Shown here: positions 2,599 to 40,037 of the stretch, piece after piece
Layout of the letters: each line of letters starts with the position of its first letter
How positions within the stretch are numbered: the stretch's first letter is position 1
Assembly: GCA_037137635.1 (NCBI GenBank)
Contig: JBAXJW010000001.1
Span: 1 to 44,694, forward strand
Reading direction: 5' to 3'
Source of the DNA: a bacterium
GTDB lineage: Bacteria; Bdellovibrionota; UBA2428
Length of the DNA stretch: 44,694 bases
Made by a program: the position numbers and the translations under genes
The notes under the pieces: model-generated
Seen by the model: only the letters and a program-made list of their open reading frames with translations
The model's database searches: none
What the model was told of the DNA's origin: nothing

Positions 2599-3036
2599 TT
2601 ACTTTTTCAAGAATAGCGCTCGAATGTATATCCACGGAAACAACACCCAGCAAAAGAAAGCCCCCCCGACAAGACCAATACCCAGCGCGAGCTCCAAGGT
2701 TTCTCGGAAAGTCCATTCATGAAAAACTTGTCTCTTTCTCAAGATCAATACGAGCAACAAAACTCCAGGAGCTATGCCTAAAGAAAGCCACGGATAAACA
2801 TTTAAAATACTCAAAATCAAAGATTCCCACAAAATAAATCCAAAATAACAGGAGAAGGCAAACAATAGAGCGGAGACTTGTGGGCGACTCCCTTTTTTCC
2901 ATTTTGATCCCATCGAGAACAATTCACTTAATTTTTGAGGATGAAGACCCCTTTCTTTGCGCTTTTTAAATTCAACAACCAAAAAAAGGATAAGAAAGAA
3001 GAACAGTAAAATAAATCTTATTAAAAACAAGACCAC
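2599..3036 (-). CDS. small hydrophobic membrane protein, function unknown
   Basis: 145 aa ORF with a GTG start and about 4 predicted hydrophobic helices. It lies 23 nt upstream of mraY on the same strand. No recognisable motif. Confidence 0.4.
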   Translation of the reverse strand: MVLFLIRFILLFFFLILFLVVEFKKRKERGLHPQKLSELFSMGSKWKKGSRPQVSALLFAFSCYFGFILWESLILSILNVYPWLSLGIAPGVLLLVLILRKRQVFHEWTFRETLELALGIGLVGGAFFCWVLFPWIYIRALFLKK

Positions 3037-7957: not shown

Positions 7958-8668
7958 TTATTTTGTAGGTGTGGCACCTGGTGCTGGAGCTCCCCCACCA
8001 GAATCTTTTCTTTTAATGTATTCCACAATATCTTCATCTTTGAAGGATTCAGGTTTATCACAAGCCATGTTCTTCAGATAGACAGGAGCTATTCCCACTC
8101 CGTTCGCATCCGTAGGATAAACAATGACAGCTGACTTACCTGTTTGCCCAGGAATAAACTCCACTCGACTTCCGTCATTATGCAAAAAAACAGCCCCTAC
8201 TCTATTTATAAGAGGCTTCAAGTTTTGTTTATCTATTAACCGCTTACGTCCCTTACTAAATTCCAAAACTCTTTCGACTTCAGTGCCTCTCATTGCGTAA
8301 AATTCTGAACGATTATTTTTTAATTTTTTTTGAAAAACAAAGGTCACCTCACCCCTGTCTCCTAGAACTTGGCTGAGTTCCCAGAGAAAATAAGTTTTAT
8401 CTCCATCTTTCTTTAGGTAGTCACGAAAAATTCTTCTTATTCTTTTACCATTACTTTTTATGGACCAAGGAATTTTATCAACGGTTCCACAAGTACTTAT
8501 GTGAGAAACTCTAAGATCTCCCGTGGTGGGATCGTAACTCAGTTTTTCAAATTTTTGCTCAGAAGAAACAGAGCCTTCAATCTTAGGAGTTTTTTTAGCG
8601 CATAAAAAATGATGCAAAGAAAAAAATAAAATGAAAAAAAAACCCTTCAAAAAAGGCGTAGCTCTCAT
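7958..8668 (-). CDS. secreted/periplasmic protein, function unknown
   Basis: 236 aa with an N-terminal signal-peptide-like segment (MRATPFLKGFFFILFFSLHHFLCA) and a Gly/Pro/Ala-rich C-terminus. Its ATG overlaps the stop of the upstream gene by 4 nt. I recognise no LptA/OstA-like sequence. Confidence 0.5.
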   Translation of the reverse strand: MRATPFLKGFFFILFFSLHHFLCAKKTPKIEGSVSSEQKFEKLSYDPTTGDLRVSHISTCGTVDKIPWSIKSNGKRIRRIFRDYLKKDGDKTYFLWELSQVLGDRGEVTFVFQKKLKNNRSEFYAMRGTEVERVLEFSKGRKRLIDKQNLKPLINRVGAVFLHNDGSRVEFIPGQTGKSAVIVYPTDANGVGIAPVYLKNMACDKPESFKDEDIVEYIKRKDSGGGAPAPGATPTK

Positions 8669-9846
8669 GTTTTTATTATGCCATAAATCCCAGATAGAAC
8701 GCGCTTTCGAGCCATGACTCGACGCTTTTCTTTGTAGTCACGATGGCTACTGCGCCCCCTTAGATTTTCTACGTAAGATTCCTTGTCCGTTATTTGAATC
8801 TCATAAGGATAATAAAAGGCTTTTCTTTCTCTCAAAACGATTGGAAAAGATTTCAAGAATCTCCTACCCGAAATTGTTTTTTCAAGCTGTTCTCTTATTT
8901 TTTCAAAAACCGGCAAGATTGAATTTTGCACGTGAACTAAATGCTGACATGTAAACTGCAAAGAACGATAGTGAGGAGAACTAAAGGAATTTTTAACTCC
9001 CGCTTCACCCACAGACATAAGAGGAATATCAAGCAAAGAATATTTTTTATCCGCCTCTGAGGGAGAAAGCCTTCCTGCTTCTACGTCTTTTCTTAAAGAC
9101 TCCATATTTTCATGAATGACTTTTATATCTAATAAATTATTAAAAGATTTTCTGGGTTGAATATTCGCATATGAAATCGCACCCAATTCAAAAAACTTTT
9201 CTACTAATCGAATCGCATCAATTTTTTTTTCAACAACAAAACGAAACCCTAAGCTATCGTAAATTAATTCGACATCGTTTTGCGCCTTTGAAATGAGTTT
9301 AACAATCATGGAATTTCGTTCTTTTTTAACTTTTTTCTGATAACGAACAAGAGGAACACCCTCTTCTCCTGGTTTACCAAAACTCCATTTTCGAGGTGCA
9401 ATTTGTCGAACAAAGGGATCAAACTGAGCAAATATTTTCTCACGAGCAGTGTGAAAGTTTTCTAATTTCAAATCATTATCCAGATGTGAAATCGTATGCA
9501 TGACTCGAAGGATCGCACATGCCCAACCAGAGCGCTCACCTTGTGGTACAGAAGCTTCTACAAGTAATTTTAAAATATCATTCTGACTTGTCCGTTCATA
9601 AAAAGACGGAGGTAGCTTTTCATTTGCTTCCAATAAAACGTTTCGAATAAAATTGAGGGCTTCAAAATACACCCTCCAAATTTCTTCATAAGTTATCGGA
9701 TCATCAACATCGTAGCCGTAGGCTTTTAAAAAGGTTTTTGCTTCATTTTTTGTTCGAACATTTAAATGTGAAAAATCAATAATCGATTCCCCAGAAATTG
9801 TTTGATTGATGGGGAGCCAATCATGATGCCACTGGCTTGATGCCAT
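8665..9846 (-). CDS. divergent RelA/SpoT-domain-like (nucleotidyltransferase-fold) protein, function unknown
   Basis: 393 aa. The C-terminal half carries, in the canonical order, degenerate versions of the RelA/SpoT synthetase motifs: KxxxSxxxK (VKKERNSMIVKL), DxxGxRxV (DSLGFRFVV), YxSxQ (HYRSLQ, His replaced by Gln) and EIQI (YPYEIQITD, Arg missing). The N-terminal ~180 aa is helical and unassigned. Confidence 0.45.
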   Translation of the reverse strand: MASSQWHHDWLPINQTISGESIIDFSHLNVRTKNEAKTFLKAYGYDVDDPITYEEIWRVYFEALNFIRNVLLEANEKLPPSFYERTSQNDILKLLVEASVPQGERSGWACAILRVMHTISHLDNDLKLENFHTAREKIFAQFDPFVRQIAPRKWSFGKPGEEGVPLVRYQKKVKKERNSMIVKLISKAQNDVELIYDSLGFRFVVEKKIDAIRLVEKFFELGAISYANIQPRKSFNNLLDIKVIHENMESLRKDVEAGRLSPSEADKKYSLLDIPLMSVGEAGVKNSFSSPHYRSLQFTCQHLVHVQNSILPVFEKIREQLEKTISGRRFLKSFPIVLRERKAFYYPYEIQITDKESYVENLRGRSSHRDYKEKRRVMARKRVLSGIYGIIKT

Positions 9847-9862
9847 TCTTTTTTAAATTTCC

Positions 9863-10417
9863 TTACCAGTCACGATCATCTTCGGAGTCGCTATCGCTAT
9901 CACTCTTTTTATCATCATCAGCCCATTCGTCGTCTTCGGTCCATTCATCTGAATCGTCGAAGTTTCCACGGTCGCCCTCCTCCTCATCTTCCGCTCCTTC
10001 AATCGCAGCTGGATCGCTTTTCCACCAAGCTGGAGGGCCATCCGTGTCTTTATCATCTTCAAACTCTTCGAGTTTTGTTCGTGCTTTTTCATCTTCTTCG
10101 AAGTCATCGACTTCGCTATCAGCCAACACATAGGAAGCAGCTAGCTCTTCTTTTGGAAGAATTTTAGAAAGAGCGACTGCGGGAGCTGCCTTTGTAAGAG
10201 GCTTCGCGGCTTTTTCACCTGATTTTTTAGTCTCGGTTGATTTTTCTGAGCTCTTTTTTGAGGGCTTCTCCTTCGATGCAGCTTTATTTACTTTTTTAGC
10301 CGCAATTTTTTTTGGAGCGCTCGTCTTTTGAGCTTTGGGTGCCTTAGGAACCTTTGAGGCTTCCTTTGGTGCTTTTTTAGTATTTTTACTTTTACTCGCC
10401 ATATGTCCTAAAAACAT
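9863..10417 (-). CDS. bipartite low-complexity protein with Lys/Ala/Pro-rich histone-H1-like N-terminus and Asp/Glu/Trp-rich acidic C-terminus
   Basis: 184 aa (179 aa if it starts at the second ATG at 10402, MASKSK, which has an AGGA 3 nt upstream). Residues ~6-85 are KKAPKEASKVPKAPKAQKTSAPKKIAAKK-type. Residues ~100-184 are strongly acidic with W residues (DEWTEDDEWADDD ... DRDW). The other-frame ORFs here are low-complexity artefacts. Confidence 0.55.
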   Translation of the reverse strand: MFLGHMASKSKNTKKAPKEASKVPKAPKAQKTSAPKKIAAKKVNKAASKEKPSKKSSEKSTETKKSGEKAAKPLTKAAPAVALSKILPKEELAASYVLADSEVDDFEEDEKARTKLEEFEDDKDTDGPPAWWKSDPAAIEGAEDEEEGDRGNFDDSDEWTEDDEWADDDKKSDSDSDSEDDRDW

Positions 10418-10430
10418 TTACAAAGGGCTA

Positions 10431-11066
10431 GTGGGACTTGTGTCAAGAACAGATTTAAAAATTCTTTACGAAGATCATAATTTATTAGTTATTTGTAAAC
10501 ATGCAGGTGTTCACAGTAACGAGCTTGAAATAGAACGCGGTGCGCAATTGTTTAAACCAGTTCATAGAATCGATTATGAAACACAAGGCCTTCTTCTATT
10601 TGCCACTGATAGCGCCTGGAAGACTTATAATGAATTATTTTTGGGTCACTCAATACAGAAGGTCTATCTTGCAGGCGCCCCTTACAAACAAAGCTGCGTT
10701 GGAAAAAAAGAAGGTTTTATAGCCTCTCGCTACCGGTCCTCAAAAAAAACCTCTTATGGAGAAGATTCTGAAAAGTTTCGTTCTTTTCATTCCGTACTCG
10801 AATCCAAGCACATTGTCCGTGAATCTCAAGAAAAGATAAACTTCACGGGCCATATATTTGAAGTCGATCTGATTTCAGGCCGAAGACATCAAATCAGAAG
10901 CTACTTCGCATCCCAAAAGTGTCCCTTAAGAGGCGATAAACTTTACGGAGATATTAGCCCTCAAAAAACACTTGAGCTTTTTAGTTGGAAATTAAACTTT
11001 ATAGATCCTCTTTCGAAAAAAGAAATATCTCTTCAAGCTCCAACTTCTTTATTTACCATTGAATAA
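10431..11066 (+). CDS. RluA-family pseudouridine synthase (catalytic domain only)
   Basis: Motifs HRIDYETQGLLLFA (catalytic Asp) and GRRHQIR. The track ORF starts at 10335 but would overlap the divergent gene by 83 nt. The in-frame GTG at 10431 (VGLVSRTDLKILYEDHNLLV) removes the overlap and fits where the catalytic domain begins. There is no S4 domain. Confidence 0.7.
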   Translation: MGLVSRTDLKILYEDHNLLVICKHAGVHSNELEIERGAQLFKPVHRIDYETQGLLLFATDSAWKTYNELFLGHSIQKVYLAGAPYKQSCVGKKEGFIASRYRSSKKTSYGEDSEKFRSFHSVLESKHIVRESQEKINFTGHIFEVDLISGRRHQIRSYFASQKCPLRGDKLYGDISPQKTLELFSWKLNFIDPLSKKEISLQAPTSLFTIE

Positions 11067-12500: not shown

Positions 12501-12902
12501 TTAATTAACAGACTTTAACGCATTTACACGGCTCATAGCGCGCTGAAGTTTAAGCTCATATTTTCTAAACTCTTCATCGCTCATTCCGCCTTCAGTTACT
12601 TTTTTAAAGGCCTTAGTCTCAGCCGCTTTTGCTCTTTGCTCATCAATTTCAGTTGCAAGTTCACTTACGTCAGCAAGAACTGAAATTTTATTATCAAAAA
12701 TTTCAAGCCATCCATAAGAAATGGCCGCTGCACCCCAAGCGCCATCCATCTTCCAACGAATCACGCCTGTTTTTAATTCAGTAATAAAATTAGAGTGCTC
12801 GGGTAAAATTTCAATTTGTCCTTCTACGCCGGGCGCAAAGACATCACTAACTTCTTGTTCAACAAGTATCTTTTTGCTGGGAGTAAGAATTGATAATTTC
12901 AT
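12501..12902 (-). CDS. atpC: F0F1 ATP synthase subunit epsilon
   Basis: 133 aa with a typical epsilon N-terminal beta-sandwich sequence and a C-terminal helical hairpin. It is the last gene after atpD. Confidence 0.9.
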   Translation of the reverse strand: MKLSILTPSKKILVEQEVSDVFAPGVEGQIEILPEHSNFITELKTGVIRWKMDGAWGAAAISYGWLEIFDNKISVLADVSELATEIDEQRAKAAETKAFKKVTEGGMSDEEFRKYELKLQRAMSRVNALKSVN

Positions 12903-12916
12903 TTTTTATCCTGTAA

Positions 12917-15279
<2,363 letters not shown>

Positions 15280-15288
15280 ATTCTCTCC

Positions 15289-16800
15289 CTAGTTTGCAAA
15301 TTGTTTTGTGAATGTTTCCAAAACACTCTTCAGTTGAGGTTCTGTTTTATCGTCAATGGCCTGGCTTTGGCTAAGAGCCTTCATCAAGTCTCCACCTCGG
15401 CTATCGAGGTATGCAGAGAGTTGTTCTTCATAATCACGAACGCGATTTGTTGGAACATTATCAAGATATCCCTTTGTCACCGCGTAAATAAGAACAACTT
15501 GTTTATCGACGCTTAAGGGAACGTATTGACCTTGTTTCAATATTTCTTGAAGACGAAGTCCTCTATTTAATTGTTTTTGAGTTGTAGGATCTAAGTCAGA
15601 ACCAAACGCTGCAAAAGCTGCCAGTTCTCTAAACTGAGCCAATTCCAAACGAAGAGGTCCCGCTACTTTTTTCATCGCTTTAATTTGTGCATTGCCACCA
15701 ACGCGAGAAACTGAAAGTCCTGCGTTCACTGCTGGGCGTATACCTGCGTAAAATAAATCACTTTCTAAGAAGATCTGTCCGTCAGTAATCGAAATAACGT
15801 TCGTAGGAATGTATGCAGAAACGTCGCCTGCTTGAGTTTCGATAATCGGAAGAGCTGTCAAAGAGCCTCCACCCATTTCTTTACTCATCTTAGCAGCACG
15901 CTCTAACAAACGTGAGTGAATATAGAACACGTCTCCAGGAAAAGCTTCGCGGCCTGGAGGGCGTCGGAGAAGCAACGAAAGCTGTCGATAAGCTTGAGCC
16001 TGTTTTGTTAAGTCGTCGAAAACAATGAGGGCATGCCTACCATTATCGCGATACCACTCTCCAATAGTAGCACCCGTGTAAGGAGCGATAAATTGAAGAG
16101 GTGCAGTTTCTGATGCTGTCGCCATAACAATAGTTGTATATTCCATGGCACCATGAGAACGAAGTTTCTCAACTACTTGAGCAACTGTTGATTGTTTTTG
16201 TCCAATCGCAACGTAAACACAAAAAACGCCTTTGCCTTTTTGATTGATAATTGTGTCGATTGCAACAGCTGTCTTTCCAGTTTGACGATCGCCAATGATC
16301 AACTCACGTTGACCACGACCAATAGGAATAAGAGCGTCGATAATTTTTAATCCAGTTTGAAGAGGCTCTGTAACAGGTTGTCTTTTAACGATACCGGGAG
16401 CCTTTGTTTCAACAACTCTCGATTCTTTACTTATTATAGGACCCTTTCCATCTACTGGAATTCCAAGAGCATTCACAACACGACCAGCGAGCTCTTCACC
16501 TACTGGAACTTGTAAAATCTTTCCTGTGCGCTTAACAGTATCGCCTTCTTTGAGTCCTGTATCACGACCAAAAATCGCAACGCCCACGTTTCCTTCTTCA
16601 AGGTTAAGAGCAACACCGTAAACATTTCCTGGAAGCTCAATCATCTCTCCAGCCATACATTTATCGAGACCATGAACGCGAGCGACACCGTCTCCAATCG
16701 AAATAATGGTTCCAGTTTCATTCACTTCAAGTTTTGTATCGAAGTCTTTGATTTGCTTTTTGATAATCGAACTAATTTCTTCGGCGCGTAATTGCTCCAT
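15289..16800 (-). CDS. atpA: F0F1 ATP synthase subunit alpha
   Basis: 503 aa with P-loop [11 protein letters not shown] and full-length similarity to the alpha-subunit pattern. Confidence 0.97.
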
Positions 16801-16843
16801 TGAATTTCCTTCTCCTTAACTTTCACCAAGCATCTGACTCATG

Positions 16844-17401
16844 TCAGTTGCCTGTTCTTTCTTCCATAAATTTGTTTTGCATCTGGAACAAAACGCCCGT
16901 CAATGTTGAGTCGATTGTTCTTCCTAAAAAATGCACTCTAATTCCCGCCACAAGTTCGGGAACAATATCTACTGATGACAGGAACTTAGTTGAAAACTCT
17001 TTCTCTAAACTTGAAATAATTTTTTTTTGTTGAGCTTCAGTCATAGGAAGTGCCGTTTCAATTTTGACAGACGCCACTCCTTCTTGAGTCATAATTTTTT
17101 CTCTATAGGACTCTAGGATAGAACCCAAAATATTGATTCTGTCGCTCTCAAGCAAAAGCAACAAGAAGTTTTGTAATTCTTGAGAAAAAGAAACTTTGTT
17201 AAAAATTTCTTTCAAGATTTTTTTCTTGTCATCATTAGAAAAAGCCGGGTTTGAAAAAAGCTTTTGTAAATCTTCACTTGAAAGAAAAATTTCAACAAAC
17301 CTCTCCAAAGACGTCAAAGTTTTTTTTGCTTCCTCAACCGTCAAAGAAGACCAAAGAGCTCCTGCATATCTTTTGGCAACAAGTTCAGCAGACGTACTCA
17401 T
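16844..17401 (-). CDS. atpH: F0F1 ATP synthase subunit delta (OSCP)
   Basis: 185 aa with N-terminal VAKRYAGALW, as in delta subunits. It lies between atpF and atpA, with a 4-nt overlap with atpF. Confidence 0.8.
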   Translation of the reverse strand: MSTSAELVAKRYAGALWSSLTVEEAKKTLTSLERFVEIFLSSEDLQKLFSNPAFSNDDKKKILKEIFNKVSFSQELQNFLLLLLESDRINILGSILESYREKIMTQEGVASVKIETALPMTEAQQKKIISSLEKEFSTKFLSSVDIVPELVAGIRVHFLGRTIDSTLTGVLFQMQNKFMEERTGN

Positions 17402-17928
17402 ACTCGAACACCTCTAGAAGAGTTTTCAGTTTTAGTTATAAAACCTTCGATTAATTTTTCGTGTAATTTTTGACGAGAAATTTCGTTTGAAAATTCTGAA
17501 CGAATTTTTTCAAAAACATTTTCTAAAAGTTCTTGTTTATATTTTTTGCGCATCTCCGCGAATTCAGAAGTCACTGCATTACTACTGTCTTCTCGAATTC
17601 TCTTGGCACTCATTTGTGCTTCGTCAATTAATTTACGTGCCAACAATTTACCCTCTTCTTCGACGTTTCGAATAAGAGCTTCTTTTTCTGTTTCAATGTT
17701 CTTAAGGCTTAAGCGAGCATTTTCAATCTCTTGAGAAATTTTCTTCAACTCTTCTCTTGCAAGAACCAAACTTTCTTTAGTTTTTTGACTTCTTGTTTTG
17801 AAAAGGACAGGAATAGATTTTCTTCCCAAAACAAAAATCGCCAAAACAACGATTCCGATATTCATCAAAGCATATAACTCATGCATACCAGGGGACTGTG
17901 CAACGTGATGCGCTTCCATGCTAATCAA
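17398..17928 (-). CDS. atpF: F0F1 ATP synthase subunit b
   Basis: 176 aa with one N-terminal TM helix followed by a long charged coiled-coil. Operon position supports the call. Confidence 0.75.
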   Translation of the reverse strand: MISMEAHHVAQSPGMHELYALMNIGIVVLAIFVLGRKSIPVLFKTRSQKTKESLVLAREELKKISQEIENARLSLKNIETEKEALIRNVEEEGKLLARKLIDEAQMSAKRIREDSSNAVTSEFAEMRKKYKQELLENVFEKIRSEFSNEISRQKLHEKLIEGFITKTENSSRGVRV

Positions 17929-18407
17929 AATTCCTTTTCTAAAGTTATTTTTTTGGCAGAGCTAGATCCCAAAAGTTTTTCTAAAATTTCTTCTTTGAGC
18001 TCGACACTTAAACGATCAAGTTTTTGTTTTTCATCAGTCAGCATTTTCTCAACTTTTTCCCGAGCTGCTTTGACTTGATTTGCAAAATCCTCTCGAGCTT
18101 CTGTCAAAATTTTTCTCTGCTCAGAACTCGCTTGAACTTTGAGACTTTCGAATTTTGAACTTGCTTCTTGTTGAGCGCGTCGTCTTTTTGACGATAGGTT
18201 TTCCTGAATCTCTAAAAGCTCTGATCGAATTTTTGTAACTTGTTTTTGACGACCTGCAATTCGCTTATCTCTTTCAACTAAGAGACTGGCAACAGGTCCA
18301 GTCAAAAGAAAAGATACAAGTAAATATGTGGTCGCAAAAAGACCAAACATTACAAAAAAACTTTGATTAACACCCAACTGCGAAAGGAGTGCAAGTAGTT
18401 GTCCCAT
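17925..18407 (-). CDS. F0F1 ATP synthase subunit b'
   Basis: 160 aa. This is a second b-type subunit (N-terminal TM helix plus a charged helix) directly upstream of atpF, overlapping it by 4 nt. Confidence 0.7.
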   Translation of the reverse strand: MGQLLALLSQLGVNQSFFVMFGLFATTYLLVSFLLTGPVASLLVERDKRIAGRQKQVTKIRSELLEIQENLSSKRRRAQQEASSKFESLKVQASSEQRKILTEAREDFANQVKAAREKVEKMLTDEKQKLDRLSVELKEEILEKLLGSSSAKKITLEKEF

Positions 18408-27286: not shown

Positions 27287-27381
27287 AAAATGTGCGTTTT
27301 ATAAAAACAGTCTTTTTTGCGATTATTTAAACTCTTAAAACAATGTTTATTAGAAGTTTATATAAACCTTGAAAAAATCAA

Positions 27382-27546
27382 CTATTTCTTTCTTCCGCGC
27401 TTAGAACTCACAGCAACAGCAATCTTTTTTCTGCCCTTGCGGCGGCGACGACTTAAAGTCTTTCTTCCACCAGGTGTTGCCATGCGTTCCAAAAATCCGT
27501 GAACGCGCTTTCTTTTTCTCTTGCTCGGTTGATATGTACGTTTCAT
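27382..27546 (-). CDS. rpmH: 50S ribosomal protein L34
   Basis: Not in the ORF track because it is under 60 aa. Manual translation of the minus strand from ATG 27546 gives [54 protein letters not shown]. This is a canonical L34 N-terminus with a short basic C-terminal extension. Confidence 0.93.
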
Positions 27547-27653
27547 AGAGCTAAGTCTTTATGGCATATGTTTGTGGGCCGCACAATCCCTCAAATTAAG
27601 ATGATGAAAGAAAATAGCAAAAAAAAGACCGTCTAAGAAAATAAATCGAATAA

Positions 27654-28805
27654 ATGGACACACAACAAGAGATTTTTCCCTTTGATAACTTCAAAACTAA
27701 AGAAGGCCTTGAAGCTAATCCGCTTGGACAAGAAGAAACTTCTCGTTATCCGGGAAAAACCGTTACTACTCAGTTTGGAGAGTCTTTAACTCCCAAATAT
27801 TCTTTTGATACTTTTGTTGTAGGTAAAAGCAATCAATTTGCCCATGCCTCAGCTGTTGCAACAGCTAATAAACCCGGAATTTATAACCCTCTTTTTATAG
27901 TTGGAAAGACGGGTTTGGGTAAAACGCACCTTTTAAAAGCTATTGGATATAGAATTCTCACAGATATTCGTCCTGGAGCCAGGATTTGTTATCGATCTAC
28001 CCAAAAATTTATCGAAGAAGTTATTCAGTCTATTCGTCACGACACACGTCACGAGCTTCATGAACGTTATCAAACAAATTGTGATGTTCTGTTAATGGAT
28101 GATATTCAATTTTTATCGAGATCTGTTTCAACTCAAGATGAGTTTTTTCGTATTTTTAACGCTCTTTTTGATAACGGAAAACAAATCGTCATTACCTCAG
28201 ATCGCCTTCCAAAAGAAATTCAAGACATTAACGATCGAATTATTTCACGTTTTGAAATGGGTATGGTGGCCGATATCGACGCGCCAGAACTAGAAACGCG
28301 TGTTGCAATCCTCAGGGCTCGTGCAGAGACAGATAACGTAACCCTTTCAGATGAGGTCGCACACCTTATAGCCACTTACGTAAAAGCAAATATTCGTGAA
28401 TTGGAGGGCTGCCTGACAAAACTCGCTGCACACGCTGCGATTTATAATGAAGACATCTCAGTTGCTCTCGTAAAAAAACTTCTCAAGGGTTACGCGGGCG
28501 AGCGACAAAAGGTAATTACACTTGATGAAATCATCAGTGTTGTTTCACATTATTTTTCTGTAAAATCAGCTGAGATCAGAGGTCCCTCTCGAAAGGCCCC
28601 TGTTTCGAAAGCTAGACAAATTGTGATGTTTTTAGGAAAAGATCTCTCGAAACTAAGCTGTACCTCTATTGCAGAAGAGCTTGGCAATCGCCACCACACA
28701 ACAGTTCTTCATGGTCAAGCCTTTATTGAGAAATCAATTCTTAAGGATCCAGTTCTTAAAACTCAAATTCAACAAATTGAAGAAACTCTTTTAAAGACTC
28801 TCTAA
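27654..28805 (+). CDS. dnaA: chromosomal replication initiator protein DnaA (lacking N-terminal domain I)
   Basis: 383 aa with the domain III entry LTPKYSFDTFVVGKSNQ, Walker A GKTGLGKTHLL, Walker B LLMDDIQF and the domain IV signature RHHTTVLHG. An in-frame TAA sits immediately upstream of the ATG. Confidence 0.93.
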   Translation: MDTQQEIFPFDNFKTKEGLEANPLGQEETSRYPGKTVTTQFGESLTPKYSFDTFVVGKSNQFAHASAVATANKPGIYNPLFIVGKTGLGKTHLLKAIGYRILTDIRPGARICYRSTQKFIEEVIQSIRHDTRHELHERYQTNCDVLLMDDIQFLSRSVSTQDEFFRIFNALFDNGKQIVITSDRLPKEIQDINDRIISRFEMGMVADIDAPELETRVAILRARAETDNVTLSDEVAHLIATYVKANIRELEGCLTKLAAHAAIYNEDISVALVKKLLKGYAGERQKVITLDEIISVVSHYFSVKSAEIRGPSRKAPVSKARQIVMFLGKDLSKLSCTSIAEELGNRHHTTVLHGQAFIEKSILKDPVLKTQIQQIEETLLKTL

Positions 28806-28831
28806 AATCCAAATTTAAAACATTGAATAAC

Positions 28832-28877
28832 CTGTGGATAACTCAGGGATAACTCTGTGGATAACTCAGGGATAAAC
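28832..28877. repeat. 23-bp tandem direct repeat, each copy carrying two DnaA boxes
   Basis: The sequence ctgtggataactcagggataa occurs at 28832-28852 and again at 28855-28875. The two copies are identical over 21 nt. Confidence 0.9.
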
Positions 28878-28933
28878 TATGAATTCCATGTTTTCCAATT
28901 GTTTTCCCTTATTTATCCACAGAGTTATCCACG
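28833..28933. promoter_or_regulatory. oriC DnaA-box cluster (six boxes)
   Basis: TGTGGATAA at 28833 and 28856 is the perfect complement of TTATCCACA. CAGGGATAA occurs at 28844 and 28867, TTATCCACA at 28913 and TTATCCACG at 28925. Spacing within each group is 11-12 bp, and the two groups have opposite orientation. Confidence 0.85.
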
Positions 28934-28949
28934 CACTTTATTCAACAAA

Positions 28950-29045
28950 ATCATATACTTAACTTAGTTACGCCATACAATTCATATATACATATATAAT
29001 TAACAACAACTTATTAATTATAATACTAGTCAAAAATGAGAAAAA
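28950..29045. other. AT-rich putative DNA unwinding element of oriC
   Basis: About 95 bp of very AT-rich sequence (e.g. ttcatatatacatatataattaacaacaacttattaattataatactag) lies immediately right of the last DnaA box and upstream of the dnaN RBS (AAGGTGG). Confidence 0.6.
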
Positions 29046-29101
29046 CTTAGGGAAAACTTGCTCTGTTCAATATGAAAGAATCCAATTAAGGTGGGGAAAG
29101 A

Positions 29102-30229
29102 ATGGAATTTACGATTGATAGAAGTCTGTTTTTGGAAGGATTAGAAAAAACTTTAAGTGTTGTCGAAAAAAGAAACACGATGCCTTCTCTAAACCATGCG
29201 TTGATAGATATTAAAGAAGATCAACTACAAATATCTGCAACGGATTTAGAAATTTTTGTAAGCGCAAGTGTTCCTTGTAAAGTCACAACATCTGGAAGAA
29301 TTGCACTTCCTGCAAAAAATCTTTATGACATTGTTAAAGAACTTCAAGCAAGTGAAGTTAAAATTAGAGGTCTTGAAAATAATCGTGTCGAAATAAAAAG
29401 TGGAAAAAGTTTATTTCGTTTAATGGGATTAGCAGCAGATGATTTTCCACACTTCAAAACATCTCCTAAGGGACAACTTTCAACTGGAAGATTGAAAGTA
29501 AAAGAATTTTTAAAATTAATTCAAAAAACTGAACATTGTATATGCCATGAAGAATACCGATATGCTCTTACAGGAATATATCTTGAATATTTAACGGAAG
29601 ATGGAAAAAGTAAATTAAGAGCAGTGGCAACAGATGGACATCGGTTATCCCTTATGGAATGCCCTGTGGATAAGTTAGGGAATGTTAAGCTCACAAAAGG
29701 AATGATCATTCCTCGAAAAGGTGCGGCAGAACTTCGAAAACTTTTAGAATCTACAAATGAAGAAGAATTTGAATTAACTTGCGATGAAAATTTAATTCGA
29801 GTGAATCTTGGAAGATTTAAAATTTGGATTAGACCTCTTGATGCGGAATATCCTGATTATAGAAGAGTTCTTCCTGGAGAACTTCCCAGTAAATTCTTTT
29901 GTCGTAAGTCGGATTTAAGTTCTGCTTTAAAAAGAATGTCCCTCCTTGTTTCAGATCGTTCAAGAGTTGTTGCTTTTGATTTTCAAAAAGAACGCTTACA
30001 ACTTTCAACACAAAACCCTGATTTAGGAGATGCAAACGACGAACTTTCAGGAGATTTTACAGGAAATACTGTAAAAGCCGGGTTTAACGCAAAATTTTTC
30101 TCAGAAGCGCTTCAGAACTTTACGGATGAAAAAATAGTTCTTCACGTAGGAGAAGCTTTGCAGCCTGCGGTTATTAAGGCTCCTGCAGAAGAAGGCATGA
30201 CCATTGTGATTATGCCTATGAGACTTTAA
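29102..30229 (+). CDS. dnaN: DNA polymerase III subunit beta (sliding clamp)
   Basis: 375 aa with a three-domain clamp pattern and a C-terminal ...VIMPMRL typical of DnaN. A strong SD lies upstream. Confidence 0.93.
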   Translation: MEFTIDRSLFLEGLEKTLSVVEKRNTMPSLNHALIDIKEDQLQISATDLEIFVSASVPCKVTTSGRIALPAKNLYDIVKELQASEVKIRGLENNRVEIKSGKSLFRLMGLAADDFPHFKTSPKGQLSTGRLKVKEFLKLIQKTEHCICHEEYRYALTGIYLEYLTEDGKSKLRAVATDGHRLSLMECPVDKLGNVKLTKGMIIPRKGAAELRKLLESTNEEEFELTCDENLIRVNLGRFKIWIRPLDAEYPDYRRVLPGELPSKFFCRKSDLSSALKRMSLLVSDRSRVVAFDFQKERLQLSTQNPDLGDANDELSGDFTGNTVKAGFNAKFFSEALQNFTDEKIVLHVGEALQPAVIKAPAEEGMTIVIMPMRL

Positions 30230-39224: not shown

Positions 39225-40037
39225 ATGTCCGCTGGTTTTAAGATTTGGAATCCTCTGCATATTGAGTATTTGAACGCAAATCCTCATTTTGGTGCAGCAC
39301 TTGTGACGGCTGGAATCTTTGTTGCGGGCGGAGTTGCTTACCGTCTTACAACTTCTTCTTCAAAAAGCTCAAAACAAGCTTTGGAACAAGCTCAAGATGA
39401 AGACCTCGTTCCTTCTGAAAAAGTTGGATTAAGAAATATTTTTGAATCTATTGGAGAGTTTGTCCAAGGTCTTGCGAAAGATATCATGGGACACGACTAT
39501 CCTAAGTTTCTTCCAATGATTCTTTTCATTTTTACTTGGGTTTTAGTCAGTAACTTGATGGGAACCATTCCAGGAATCGGGGCCCCTACTATAGACATCA
39601 ATACAACCCTTTCTATGGGTTTGTTTGTTTTTATTTATTATAACTTTAAAGGGTTTAGAGCGAGTGGATTTAAATATCTTGAGCACTTTACCGGACATTT
39701 GCATGGGGTTTTACTTTTTTGCTTTGGTTGGTTGATGTTTCCCCTAGAACTTATTTCTCACTCTCTACGACCTCTTACATTGGGAATTCGTTTAAGAACG
39801 AACATCTTTGCCGATCACGCCGTCTTTGATATTATTTCTGGATTAACACAAGACCTCGCCCATTTTATGGAAGCAAAATTGGGGTTTGTAGGTAAAATTC
39901 TTGGATTTTTAACAGCATCAGCAGCTCCCATTCCACTTGTTCTACTCGGAATTATTTTTTGCTGTGTACAGGCCTTAGTCTTTACGCTCTTAACGAGCGT
40001 CTATATTAGCATTGCAACCTCGCATGAAGACCATTAA
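39225..40037 (+). CDS. atpB: F0F1 ATP synthase subunit a
   Basis: 270 aa polytopic membrane protein with the conserved Arg region SLRPLTLGIRLRTNIFADH. It is followed by atpE. Confidence 0.85.
   Translation: MSAGFKIWNPLHIEYLNANPHFGAALVTAGIFVAGGVAYRLTTSSSKSSKQALEQAQDEDLVPSEKVGLRNIFESIGEFVQGLAKDIMGHDYPKFLPMILFIFTWVLVSNLMGTIPGIGAPTIDINTTLSMGLFVFIYYNFKGFRASGFKYLEHFTGHLHGVLLFCFGWLMFPLELISHSLRPLTLGIRLRTNIFADHAVFDIISGLTQDLAHFMEAKLGFVGKILGFLTASAAPIPLVLLGIIFCCVQALVFTLLTSVYISIATSHEDH

Follow-up and report, generated by a model that had tools for sequence, protein, structure and literature searches.

A divergent RelA/SpoT-type enzyme and two orphan partners in a conserved operon context of the Bacteriovorax-type lineage

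RelA/SpoT homologue (RSH) enzymes govern the programmes of growth, stress and persistence in bacteria, and divergent members of the group are known to produce ppApp or pyrophosphorylated tRNA and to act as toxins or in defence. The subject here is a row of three minus-strand genes, g1, g2 and g3, that directly precede lptB in contig JBAXJW010000001.1 (assembly GCA_037137635.1; the whole stretch of 44,694 nucleotides is called the window below), the middle one of which encodes a protein with the RSH synthetase fold. The family to which g2 belongs has a name in NCBIfam, TIGR04552/TIGR04562, without an assigned function; g2 scores far above both cutoffs, and only one clade pairs the enzyme with g1 and g3. 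With RelP and RelQ, and with the synthetase of the long enzymes Rel, RelA and SpoT, g2 shares the fold and the motifs K..S...K, D..G.R, Y[RQ]SL, E-I-Q and H..YK, but it adds an N-terminal helical domain of 145 residues and an insertion of ~55 residues, falls below the Pfam gathering score and, unlike the long enzymes, has no detectable HD hydrolase domain. The toxSAS toxins FaRel, FaRel2, PhRel2 and CapRel (PMC7229694) are likewise RSH-fold enzymes in tight operons with small partners; the present locus differs in being a vertically inherited part of the core chromosome, in having partners that most of the enzyme family lacks, one of them an envelope protein, and in matching no defence model. 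With the E. coli cluster kdsD-kdsC-lptC-lptA-lptB-rpoN-hpf the window shares the order lptB-rpoN-hpf, whereas the lptC and lptA positions hold unrelated genes and metK replaces ptsN, rapZ and npr. Finally, the Lys/Ala/Pro-rich, histone-H1-like proteins of bacteria, Chlamydia Hc1/Hc2 and Pseudomonas AlgP, resemble residues 1-75 of g1 in composition without detectable homology, and differ from g1 in that the latter bears a long acidic, Trp-containing tail with conserved motifs of its own.

Set beside these systems, the trio places a catalogued but unstudied RSH branch in a new operon context, together with two orphan partners. A preliminary description of the window had held that the arrangement maps onto no described system; for the enzyme this does not stand, since g2 belongs to a catalogued family (300 and 289 bits against its two models). 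The gene layout and spacing that it gave for the trio were confirmed:

g1: 10402-9863, minus strand, 179 residues, a protein with a basic and an acidic half; 16 nt to g2
g2: 9846-8665, minus strand, 393 residues, the RSH-type enzyme; its TGA overlaps the ATG of g3 by 4 nt (ATGA, 8668-8665)
g3: 8668-7958, minus strand, 236 residues, an envelope protein; 24 nt to lptB

Conservation and limits of the three-gene unit

A g2 profile scanned against one genome per species returned at least 590 loci, the best 80 of which were kept, and relatives were compared as 13-kb loci. The order g1-g2-g3 was found in 14/14 species representatives whose g2 is 43-99% identical, as well as in the assemblies designated L001 and L002, and the gaps within the trio range from -4 to ~90 nt across syntenic loci. 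Hidden Markov models (HMMs) of g1 and g3 matched at 18/18 syntenic loci and at 0/66 more distant g2 loci. The trio is co-conserved and syntenic as well as uncharacterised, in support of the candidate module of the preliminary description. All three genes are under purifying selection, the proportions of non-synonymous and synonymous differences (pN/pS) from the orthologues of L006 being 0.08/0.80 for g1, 0.07/0.76 for g2 and 0.18/0.61 for g3, and g1 is therefore a real gene despite its low complexity. Its start lies almost certainly at 10402 (MASKSK..., with AGGA before it) and not at the mechanical open reading frame (ORF) start at 10417, because all orthologues begin at the equivalent Met.

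What surrounds the trio is less constant. A pseudouridine synthase gene, here named rluX, diverges from g1 in every syntenic locus with upstream sequence, and upstream of it lies radA, ClpB or a K+ transporter. On the other side, g3 directly precedes lptB in the window and in L001, L006, L007, L011, L015 and L018, and overlaps it in L001 and L007, while in 7 deeper relatives 1.3-4.6 kb of other genes lie between the two; g2 and g3 are never parted. Among the intervening genes is one for a tRNA/rRNA U5-methyltransferase (~425 aa), present in L002 (8133-9413), L009 (8162-9406), L010, L013 (8104-9375), L014 (7883-9169), L016 and L017, the start of which overlaps the g3 stop by 4 nt in L002, L009 and L013. 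The lineage of the window has no U5-methyltransferase at this position; L009 has in the same interval a NUDIX gene, an opposite-strand gene and a 487-aa ORF as well. Given the methyltransferase on one side and the divergent pseudouridine synthase on the other, the trio was thus ancestrally bracketed by RNA-modification genes. Because the flanks vary, the conserved unit is the divergent rluX together with g1-g2-g3, and the direct junction with lptB-rpoN-hpf is a trait of the window's subclade within a wider regional synteny and does not define the module. The proposal that the trio is fused to the front of an lptB-rpoN-hpf operon consequently holds for this subclade, but not for the deeper relatives, in which other genes are inserted.

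In a neighbour-joining tree the trio-linked g2 proteins form one clade, sister to a Bdellovibrionaceae clade, and the clades of the tree fit gene neighbourhood and, roughly, taxon labels. The trio is vertically inherited and specific to the Bacteriovorax-type lineage of Bdellovibrionota, which includes a metagenome-assembled genome (MAG), L014, that carries the trio and is assigned to Bacteriovorax stolpii, a cultivable species. A reciprocal synteny search of metagenome contigs seeded with g3 gave only two fragments of ~1.2-1.3 kb, too short to inform.

The enzyme g2, its family and its two partners

The assignment of g2 to the RelA/SpoT type, which had been made in the preliminary description, is borne out by motifs that align with those of RelP and RelSeq and by fold matches. 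Against NCBIfam, g2 scores 300.3 bits with TIGR04562 (cutoff 140, E = 1.9e-89) and 288.9 bits with TIGR04552 (cutoff 125, E = 6e-86), in both cases over nearly the full model (positions 2-355 of 356 and 4-351 of 352). Pfam RelA_SpoT (PF04607) gives 18 bits, under the gathering cutoff of 27; the same model is matched by 50/57 members of the g2 family at E <= 0.1 (best 1.9e-8), and a precomputed PF04607 match is present in several relatives. A search of the PDB with the family profile recovers RelSeq, RelP and Rel and aligns K175/S179/K183, D197xxG200xR, E349-I-Q351 and H368..Y371-K372 with their motifs, K175, S179, K183, D197, G200, E349, Q351, H368 and Y371 being invariant in the 57 sequences. 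The equivalent of the GY[QR]SLH motif is Y293-R-S-L-Q297, the Y293 and Q297 of which are at least 90% conserved in the same set; the first Arg of the RxK motif is out of register in the alignment. In the AF2 model (pLDDT 89) an N-terminal helical domain of residues ~1-145 is followed by the synthetase domain of residues ~146-393, with the insertion lying between a β-strand at 229-236 and the Y293 motif, and Foldseek puts RSH synthetase domains (RelP, RelQ, Rel, RelA) at every one of positions 1-47 among its PDB matches, with probabilities up to 1.0. No relatives of the N-terminal helical domain were detected. No HD hydrolase similarity was detected either: no HD-family Pfam match was found in 57 members, and the PDB profile search and an hhalign comparison with SpoT residues 1-400 aligned synthetase motifs only.

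Because every synthetase catalytic motif is kept, g2 is predicted to be active, and is probably a nucleotide 3'-pyrophosphokinase with an extra N-terminal domain. Judging from these motifs, the reaction most likely catalysed would have ATP as the pyrophosphate donor and, as the acceptor, the 3'-OH of a purine nucleotide or possibly an RNA 3' end. The GY[QR]SLH-type acceptor-base stacking motif does not separate nucleotide from RNA acceptors. The protein is basic, with an isoelectric point (pI) of 9.4 overall and 11.6 in the C-terminal helix.

Members of the TIGR04552/TIGR04562 family occur in at least 590 species genomes, drawn from Bdellovibrionota, Oligoflexia, Myxococcota, Sericytochromatia, Holophagaceae and other groups, and g1 and g3 mostly do not accompany them. 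In one clade, which includes other 'Bacteriovoracaceae', pgpA is the divergent neighbour of g2 (20 loci). In Bdellovibrionaceae (16-18 loci) g2 is followed after 26-110 nt by a GYF_2-domain membrane protein, with a transmembrane helix and a periplasmic part, and then by a PlsB-like glycerol-3-phosphate acyltransferase. An alpha/beta hydrolase, a thioredoxin-like exported protein and Fe-S oxidoreductases are further neighbours in other clades. The loci that adjoin phospholipid genes fall in the range L020-L084 (examples are L039 5428-5943, L026 7269-8672 and L047 4066-6627). A membrane protein directly downstream of g2 is common to the two sister clades. Genes of the envelope and of lipid metabolism, namely lptB, pgpA and plsB, thus recur beside the g2 family, which is a possible family-wide theme. 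In E. coli, ppGpp inhibits PlsB and influences LpxC turnover, and an envelope link of an RSH enzyme therefore has a precedent. The literature searched holds passing mentions of the family, as MXAN_4858 beside the glt G1 gliding cluster and as an indel in Bdellovibrio sp. NC01, and no further account of it, nor any of this gene arrangement; the RSH classification literature examined does not mention the TIGR04552/TIGR04562 branch or its lineages.

The product of g1 is bipolar and is probably cytoplasmic and disordered. Residues 1-75 are rich in Lys, Ala and Pro (pI 10.5) and are kept across orthologues in composition only, whereas residues 76-179 are acidic (pI 4.05, with 43 Asp+Glu and 5 Trp). 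Conserved in all orthologues are GPPxWWKxDPxGIE, FDDSDEW[TS]EDDEW and a C-terminal Trp. No match to g1 was found in Pfam, NCBIfam or PADLOC, and close homologues number only 11 among 5.8 billion proteins, all of them unnamed or spuriously named. One of these, P0119, carries the JGI label 'RNA polymerase primary sigma factor', which is most likely spurious and driven by the acidic low-complexity region. The preliminary description had called g1 an H1-like/acidic protein; this is accurate as to composition, but no homology to H1-like or nucleoid families was found in Pfam or NCBIfam, and 'nucleoid-type' would accordingly be a label of composition only.

In the window, g3 has a single hydrophobic segment at the N-terminus (signal peptide or anchor), a beta-rich domain and a low-complexity tail, while in most relatives the conserved domain is preceded by 4-5 predicted transmembrane helices and by a linker rich in Pro, Ala and Lys. 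The form in the window's subclade is a reduced one from which the multi-transmembrane region has been lost, so that the earlier term 'signal-peptide protein' is right in placing g3 in the envelope or among exported proteins, but describes only the reduced form. Residues C60, W96, Q100 and C203 are invariant, and the invariance of the cysteines suggests a C60/C203 disulfide in the periplasm. The family is small, as clustering at 50% identity gives only 43 clusters in a set of 1.84 billion representatives, and g3 has no Pfam match, nor do the N-terminal extensions of the long relatives hold a Pfam domain; the one hit that has a domain (CHAP), P0160, was rejected as a repeat-protein false positive (E = 2e-4). 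The AF2 model has a mean pLDDT of 70, and 80-93 in the core. No fold match at E <= 0.001 was found in the PDB or among viral models, the best values being 0.16 and 0.06 at TM ~0.2. The best PDB match is RseB (E = 0.16, TM 0.21), lipocalins are also among the weak top matches, and none of these is of evidential value; a sequence-profile search of the PDB gave transmembrane noise only.

Transcription and position on the chromosome

The genes around the trio in the window are the following:

rluX: ~10431-11066, plus strand, divergent from g1, RluA-type pseudouridine synthase (Pfam PseudoU_synth_2)
lptB: 7933-7178, minus strand, 251 aa, ATPase of the lipopolysaccharide (LPS) export ATP-binding cassette transporter (NCBIfam TIGR04406, E = 3.8e-101); 19 nt to rpoN
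rpoN: 7158-5737, minus strand, 473 aa, sigma-54 (Pfam Sigma54_AID, Sigma54_CBD and Sigma54_DBD); 66 nt to hpf
hpf: 5670-5302, minus strand, 122 aa, ribosome hibernation factor (Pfam Ribosomal_S30AE)
metK: 5318-4152, minus strand, overlapping hpf by 17 nt; in relatives the Pfam S-AdoMet_synt domains are recorded at the same position

No terminator-like hairpins were found in the intergenic spacers from g1 to hpf, where gaps are at most 66 nt. Consensus scans for promoters and terminators gave a number of sites not above that in shuffled sequence, and none in the spacers; transcription units are therefore inferred. From gene order and spacing, the trio is probably co-transcribed with lptB-rpoN-hpf-metK in the compact subclade of the window. 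No Rfam family, whether riboswitch or other leader RNA, was found anywhere in the window. For rluX, a GTG start at ~10431 is probable from the lengths of orthologues (216-219 aa) and from sequence. This start and that of g1 (minus strand, 10402) are ~28 nt apart, and each promoter must therefore fall within the opposite gene. A perfect TTGACA occurs on the g1 strand at 10446-10441, with no good -10 element at standard spacing.

The window is the replication origin (oriC) region of a Bacteriovoracaceae chromosome, and a near-identical locus (99%) is present in L005, a Bacteriovoracaceae MAG. One flank of the origin holds, by Pfam, rnpA, yidC, an R3H-domain protein that is probably Jag, mnmE, mnmG, rsmG, parA and parB, and then ATP synthase genes; the other holds dnaA and dnaN (Pfam), followed by ORFs with lengths that fit recF, gyrB and gyrA. 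The cumulative GC skew has its minimum at ~28-29 kb, dnaA lies at 27654-28805 and dnaN at 29102-30229 (origin region 27287-30229), and their spacer holds at 28833-28933 three perfect DnaA boxes and one near-perfect box (TTATCCACA). Across the window there are 31 DnaA boxes with at most 1 mismatch, where shuffled sequence gives 9.4 +/- 3.3. At 383 aa, the DnaA protein of the window is short. The trio is ~18-20 kb from oriC in core chromosome, flanked by radA, atp genes, lptB, rpoN and metK, and no gene of a mobile element was noticed anywhere in the window. The genes for ATP synthase do not form one cluster: that for the a-subunit (Pfam ATP-synt_A; 39225-40037, plus strand) lies more than 20 kb from a minus-strand block at 12501-18407, the ORFs of which were read as b/delta/alpha/gamma/beta/epsilon from lengths and translations and not by Pfam scan. 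A 145-aa ORF at 2599-3036 (minus strand), between genes for a rhomboid protease and a Glycos_transf_4 glycosyltransferase, has no Pfam match.

The favoured reading and its rivals

The favoured reading, given a probability of roughly 55% as a whole, has two parts. That the trio is a conserved and functional operon with an active enzyme of the RSH type at its core is considered likely, with good confidence. That it is an envelope-linked nucleotide-signalling module built on g2, with g1 and g3 as partners, is a best guess, put forward tentatively and rather doubtful. The widespread g2 enzyme would have gained two dedicated partners in the Bacteriovorax-type lineage. One of these, g3, membrane-anchored, with a disulfide-bonded periplasmic domain and translationally coupled to g2, would report on the envelope or act at it. 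The other, g1, would tune the enzyme or target it: the basic arm is a candidate for binding nucleic acid or the ribosome, and the acidic, Trp-rich tail might either shield this arm or dock g1 on the basic g2. Co-transcription would tie expression of the trio to envelope export, sigma-54 and ribosome hibernation. There is also a bolder version, considered improbable, in which g2 and its family of ~600 species form an unrecognised RSH branch that makes a signal other than (p)ppGpp, or pyrophosphorylates macromolecular 3' ends, under the control of the N-terminal domain, and which in the Bacteriovorax lineage was wired to the envelope through g3 as sensor and g1 as regulator.

Several points weigh against the envelope-linked module. 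The Foldseek scores of g2 are modest (best E 2e-3) and its target-normalised TM values low (0.42-0.57), for which the extra domain and the insertion account. For g1 and g3, the proposed roles were deduced solely from composition, topology and gene order. That lipid and envelope genes recur beside the family amounts to three clade-level events that were noticed post hoc, and homology of g3 to the GYF_2 membrane protein of the sister clade was rejected (hhalign probability 0.2%). In the subclade of the window, g3 may be cleaved to a soluble periplasmic protein, in which case no contact with the cytoplasmic g2 would be possible. Lastly, the other conserved neighbours of the trio, namely the pseudouridine synthase, the U5-methyltransferase and hpf, are RNA-related, and a role linked to translation fits them equally well.

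Such a role is the first of the rivals. Here g2 would be a housekeeping enzyme that pyrophosphorylates an RNA 3' end or acts on the ribosome, with g1 as an RNA or ribosome adaptor and g3 as an incidental neighbour. The pseudouridine synthase is a neighbour in all loci, the U5-methyltransferase in deeper relatives, hpf lies downstream, and the Lys-rich arm of g1 would suit RNA binding; moreover, some RSH enzymes modify the CCA end of tRNA (bioRxiv 10.1101/2021.04.30.441581). Nevertheless, this explanation is thought unlikely for three reasons: first, the acceptor-stacking motif that g2 has kept fails to tell nucleotide from RNA; second, the strict coupling of g2 to the gene of an envelope protein is left unexplained; third, in other clades g2 adjoins lipid genes and not RNA genes.

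Less probable still is that g3 is a non-orthologous replacement of LptC or LptA, or an accessory of the Lpt system, in which case the new unit would be g1-g2 only. In support of this, g3 occupies the slot that lptC and lptA fill in E. coli, 24 nt before lptB and overlapping it in two relatives, its N-terminal anchor with a beta-rich periplasmic domain is LptC-like in outline, and RseB and the lipocalins, its weak top fold matches, are lipid-binding. However, 17 members of the family gave no match to LptC (PF06835) or OstA (PF03968) even at E <= 10, hhalign returned probabilities of 1.7% against E. coli LptC and 0.1% against LptA, and the top 50 of 297 Foldseek matches include no Lpt or beta-jellyroll structure. 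Identity of g3 with LptA or LptC themselves was rejected on these grounds. In addition, the g3 family is confined to the trio clade, and in the seven relatives with other genes before lptB it stays with g2 and not with lptB, which makes an Lpt accessory unlikely. The preliminary description had remarked that lptA and lptC are not recognisable here, and this agrees with the absence of any LptC/OstA domain among the window ORFs of at least 110 aa that were scanned with Pfam, that is, those outside the ATP synthase block (12.5-18.4 kb) and recF/gyrB/gyrA, which were named from length and translation. Of the outcomes that it had listed as speaking against a module, lack of co-conservation and a g3 model of the LptA/LptC jellyroll type were looked for: the trio is co-conserved, and the model of g3 has no such fold.

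It had also raised the alternative of a toxSAS-type toxin-antitoxin or defence system, in which g2 would be a growth-arresting toxin, acting through ppApp/ppGpp or through pyrophosphorylation of tRNA, and would be neutralised by g1 and/or g3. The RSH synthetase fold and intact catalytic motifs of g2 would allow this, as would the position of a basic enzyme 16 nt after a small protein with an acidic tail and the tight coupling of the genes, and known toxSAS loci are two- or three-gene operons too (PMC7229694). Yet this alternative is disfavoured and appears remote, because the locus is a vertically inherited part of the core chromosome, most of the family is without partners and none of the three genes has a PADLOC match: it lies near oriC with synteny kept down to 43% g2 identity and with no mobile-element genes seen, the clades of the g2 tree are as expected for vertical descent, and g1, g3 and any shared small partner are missing from the 66 other g2 loci. 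An envelope protein such as g3 would also be atypical as an antitoxin. The last rival, an accidental adjacency of unrelated genes, which had likewise been proposed earlier, is rejected as the least probable, for although this gene-dense genome has short spacers all along the region and interaction of the trio products is putative, the order and tight spacing are invariant in 14 species-level genomes while both flanks change, g1 and g3 occur only beside trio-clade g2 within the loci examined, and g2 and g3 share the ATGA overlap.

In summary, the locus offers the first concrete handles on TIGR04552/TIGR04562, namely intact catalytic residues, a new N-terminal domain and two strictly co-inherited partners, and it is a testable system for specialists on RSH enzymes and on predatory bacteria, with no new principle shown yet. 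Should g2 be inactive or a housekeeping enzyme, the locus would still be a clean case of lineage-specific operon accretion. If the branch does prove to be an unrecognised one wired to the envelope, it would represent, in predatory bacteria, a new envelope-to-alarmone pathway whose expression goes together with that of LPS export, sigma-54 and ribosome hibernation. If g2 is active, it would add a signalling-nucleotide pathway to those of predatory bacteria, and may link the status of the envelope to sigma-54 and to ribosome hibernation.

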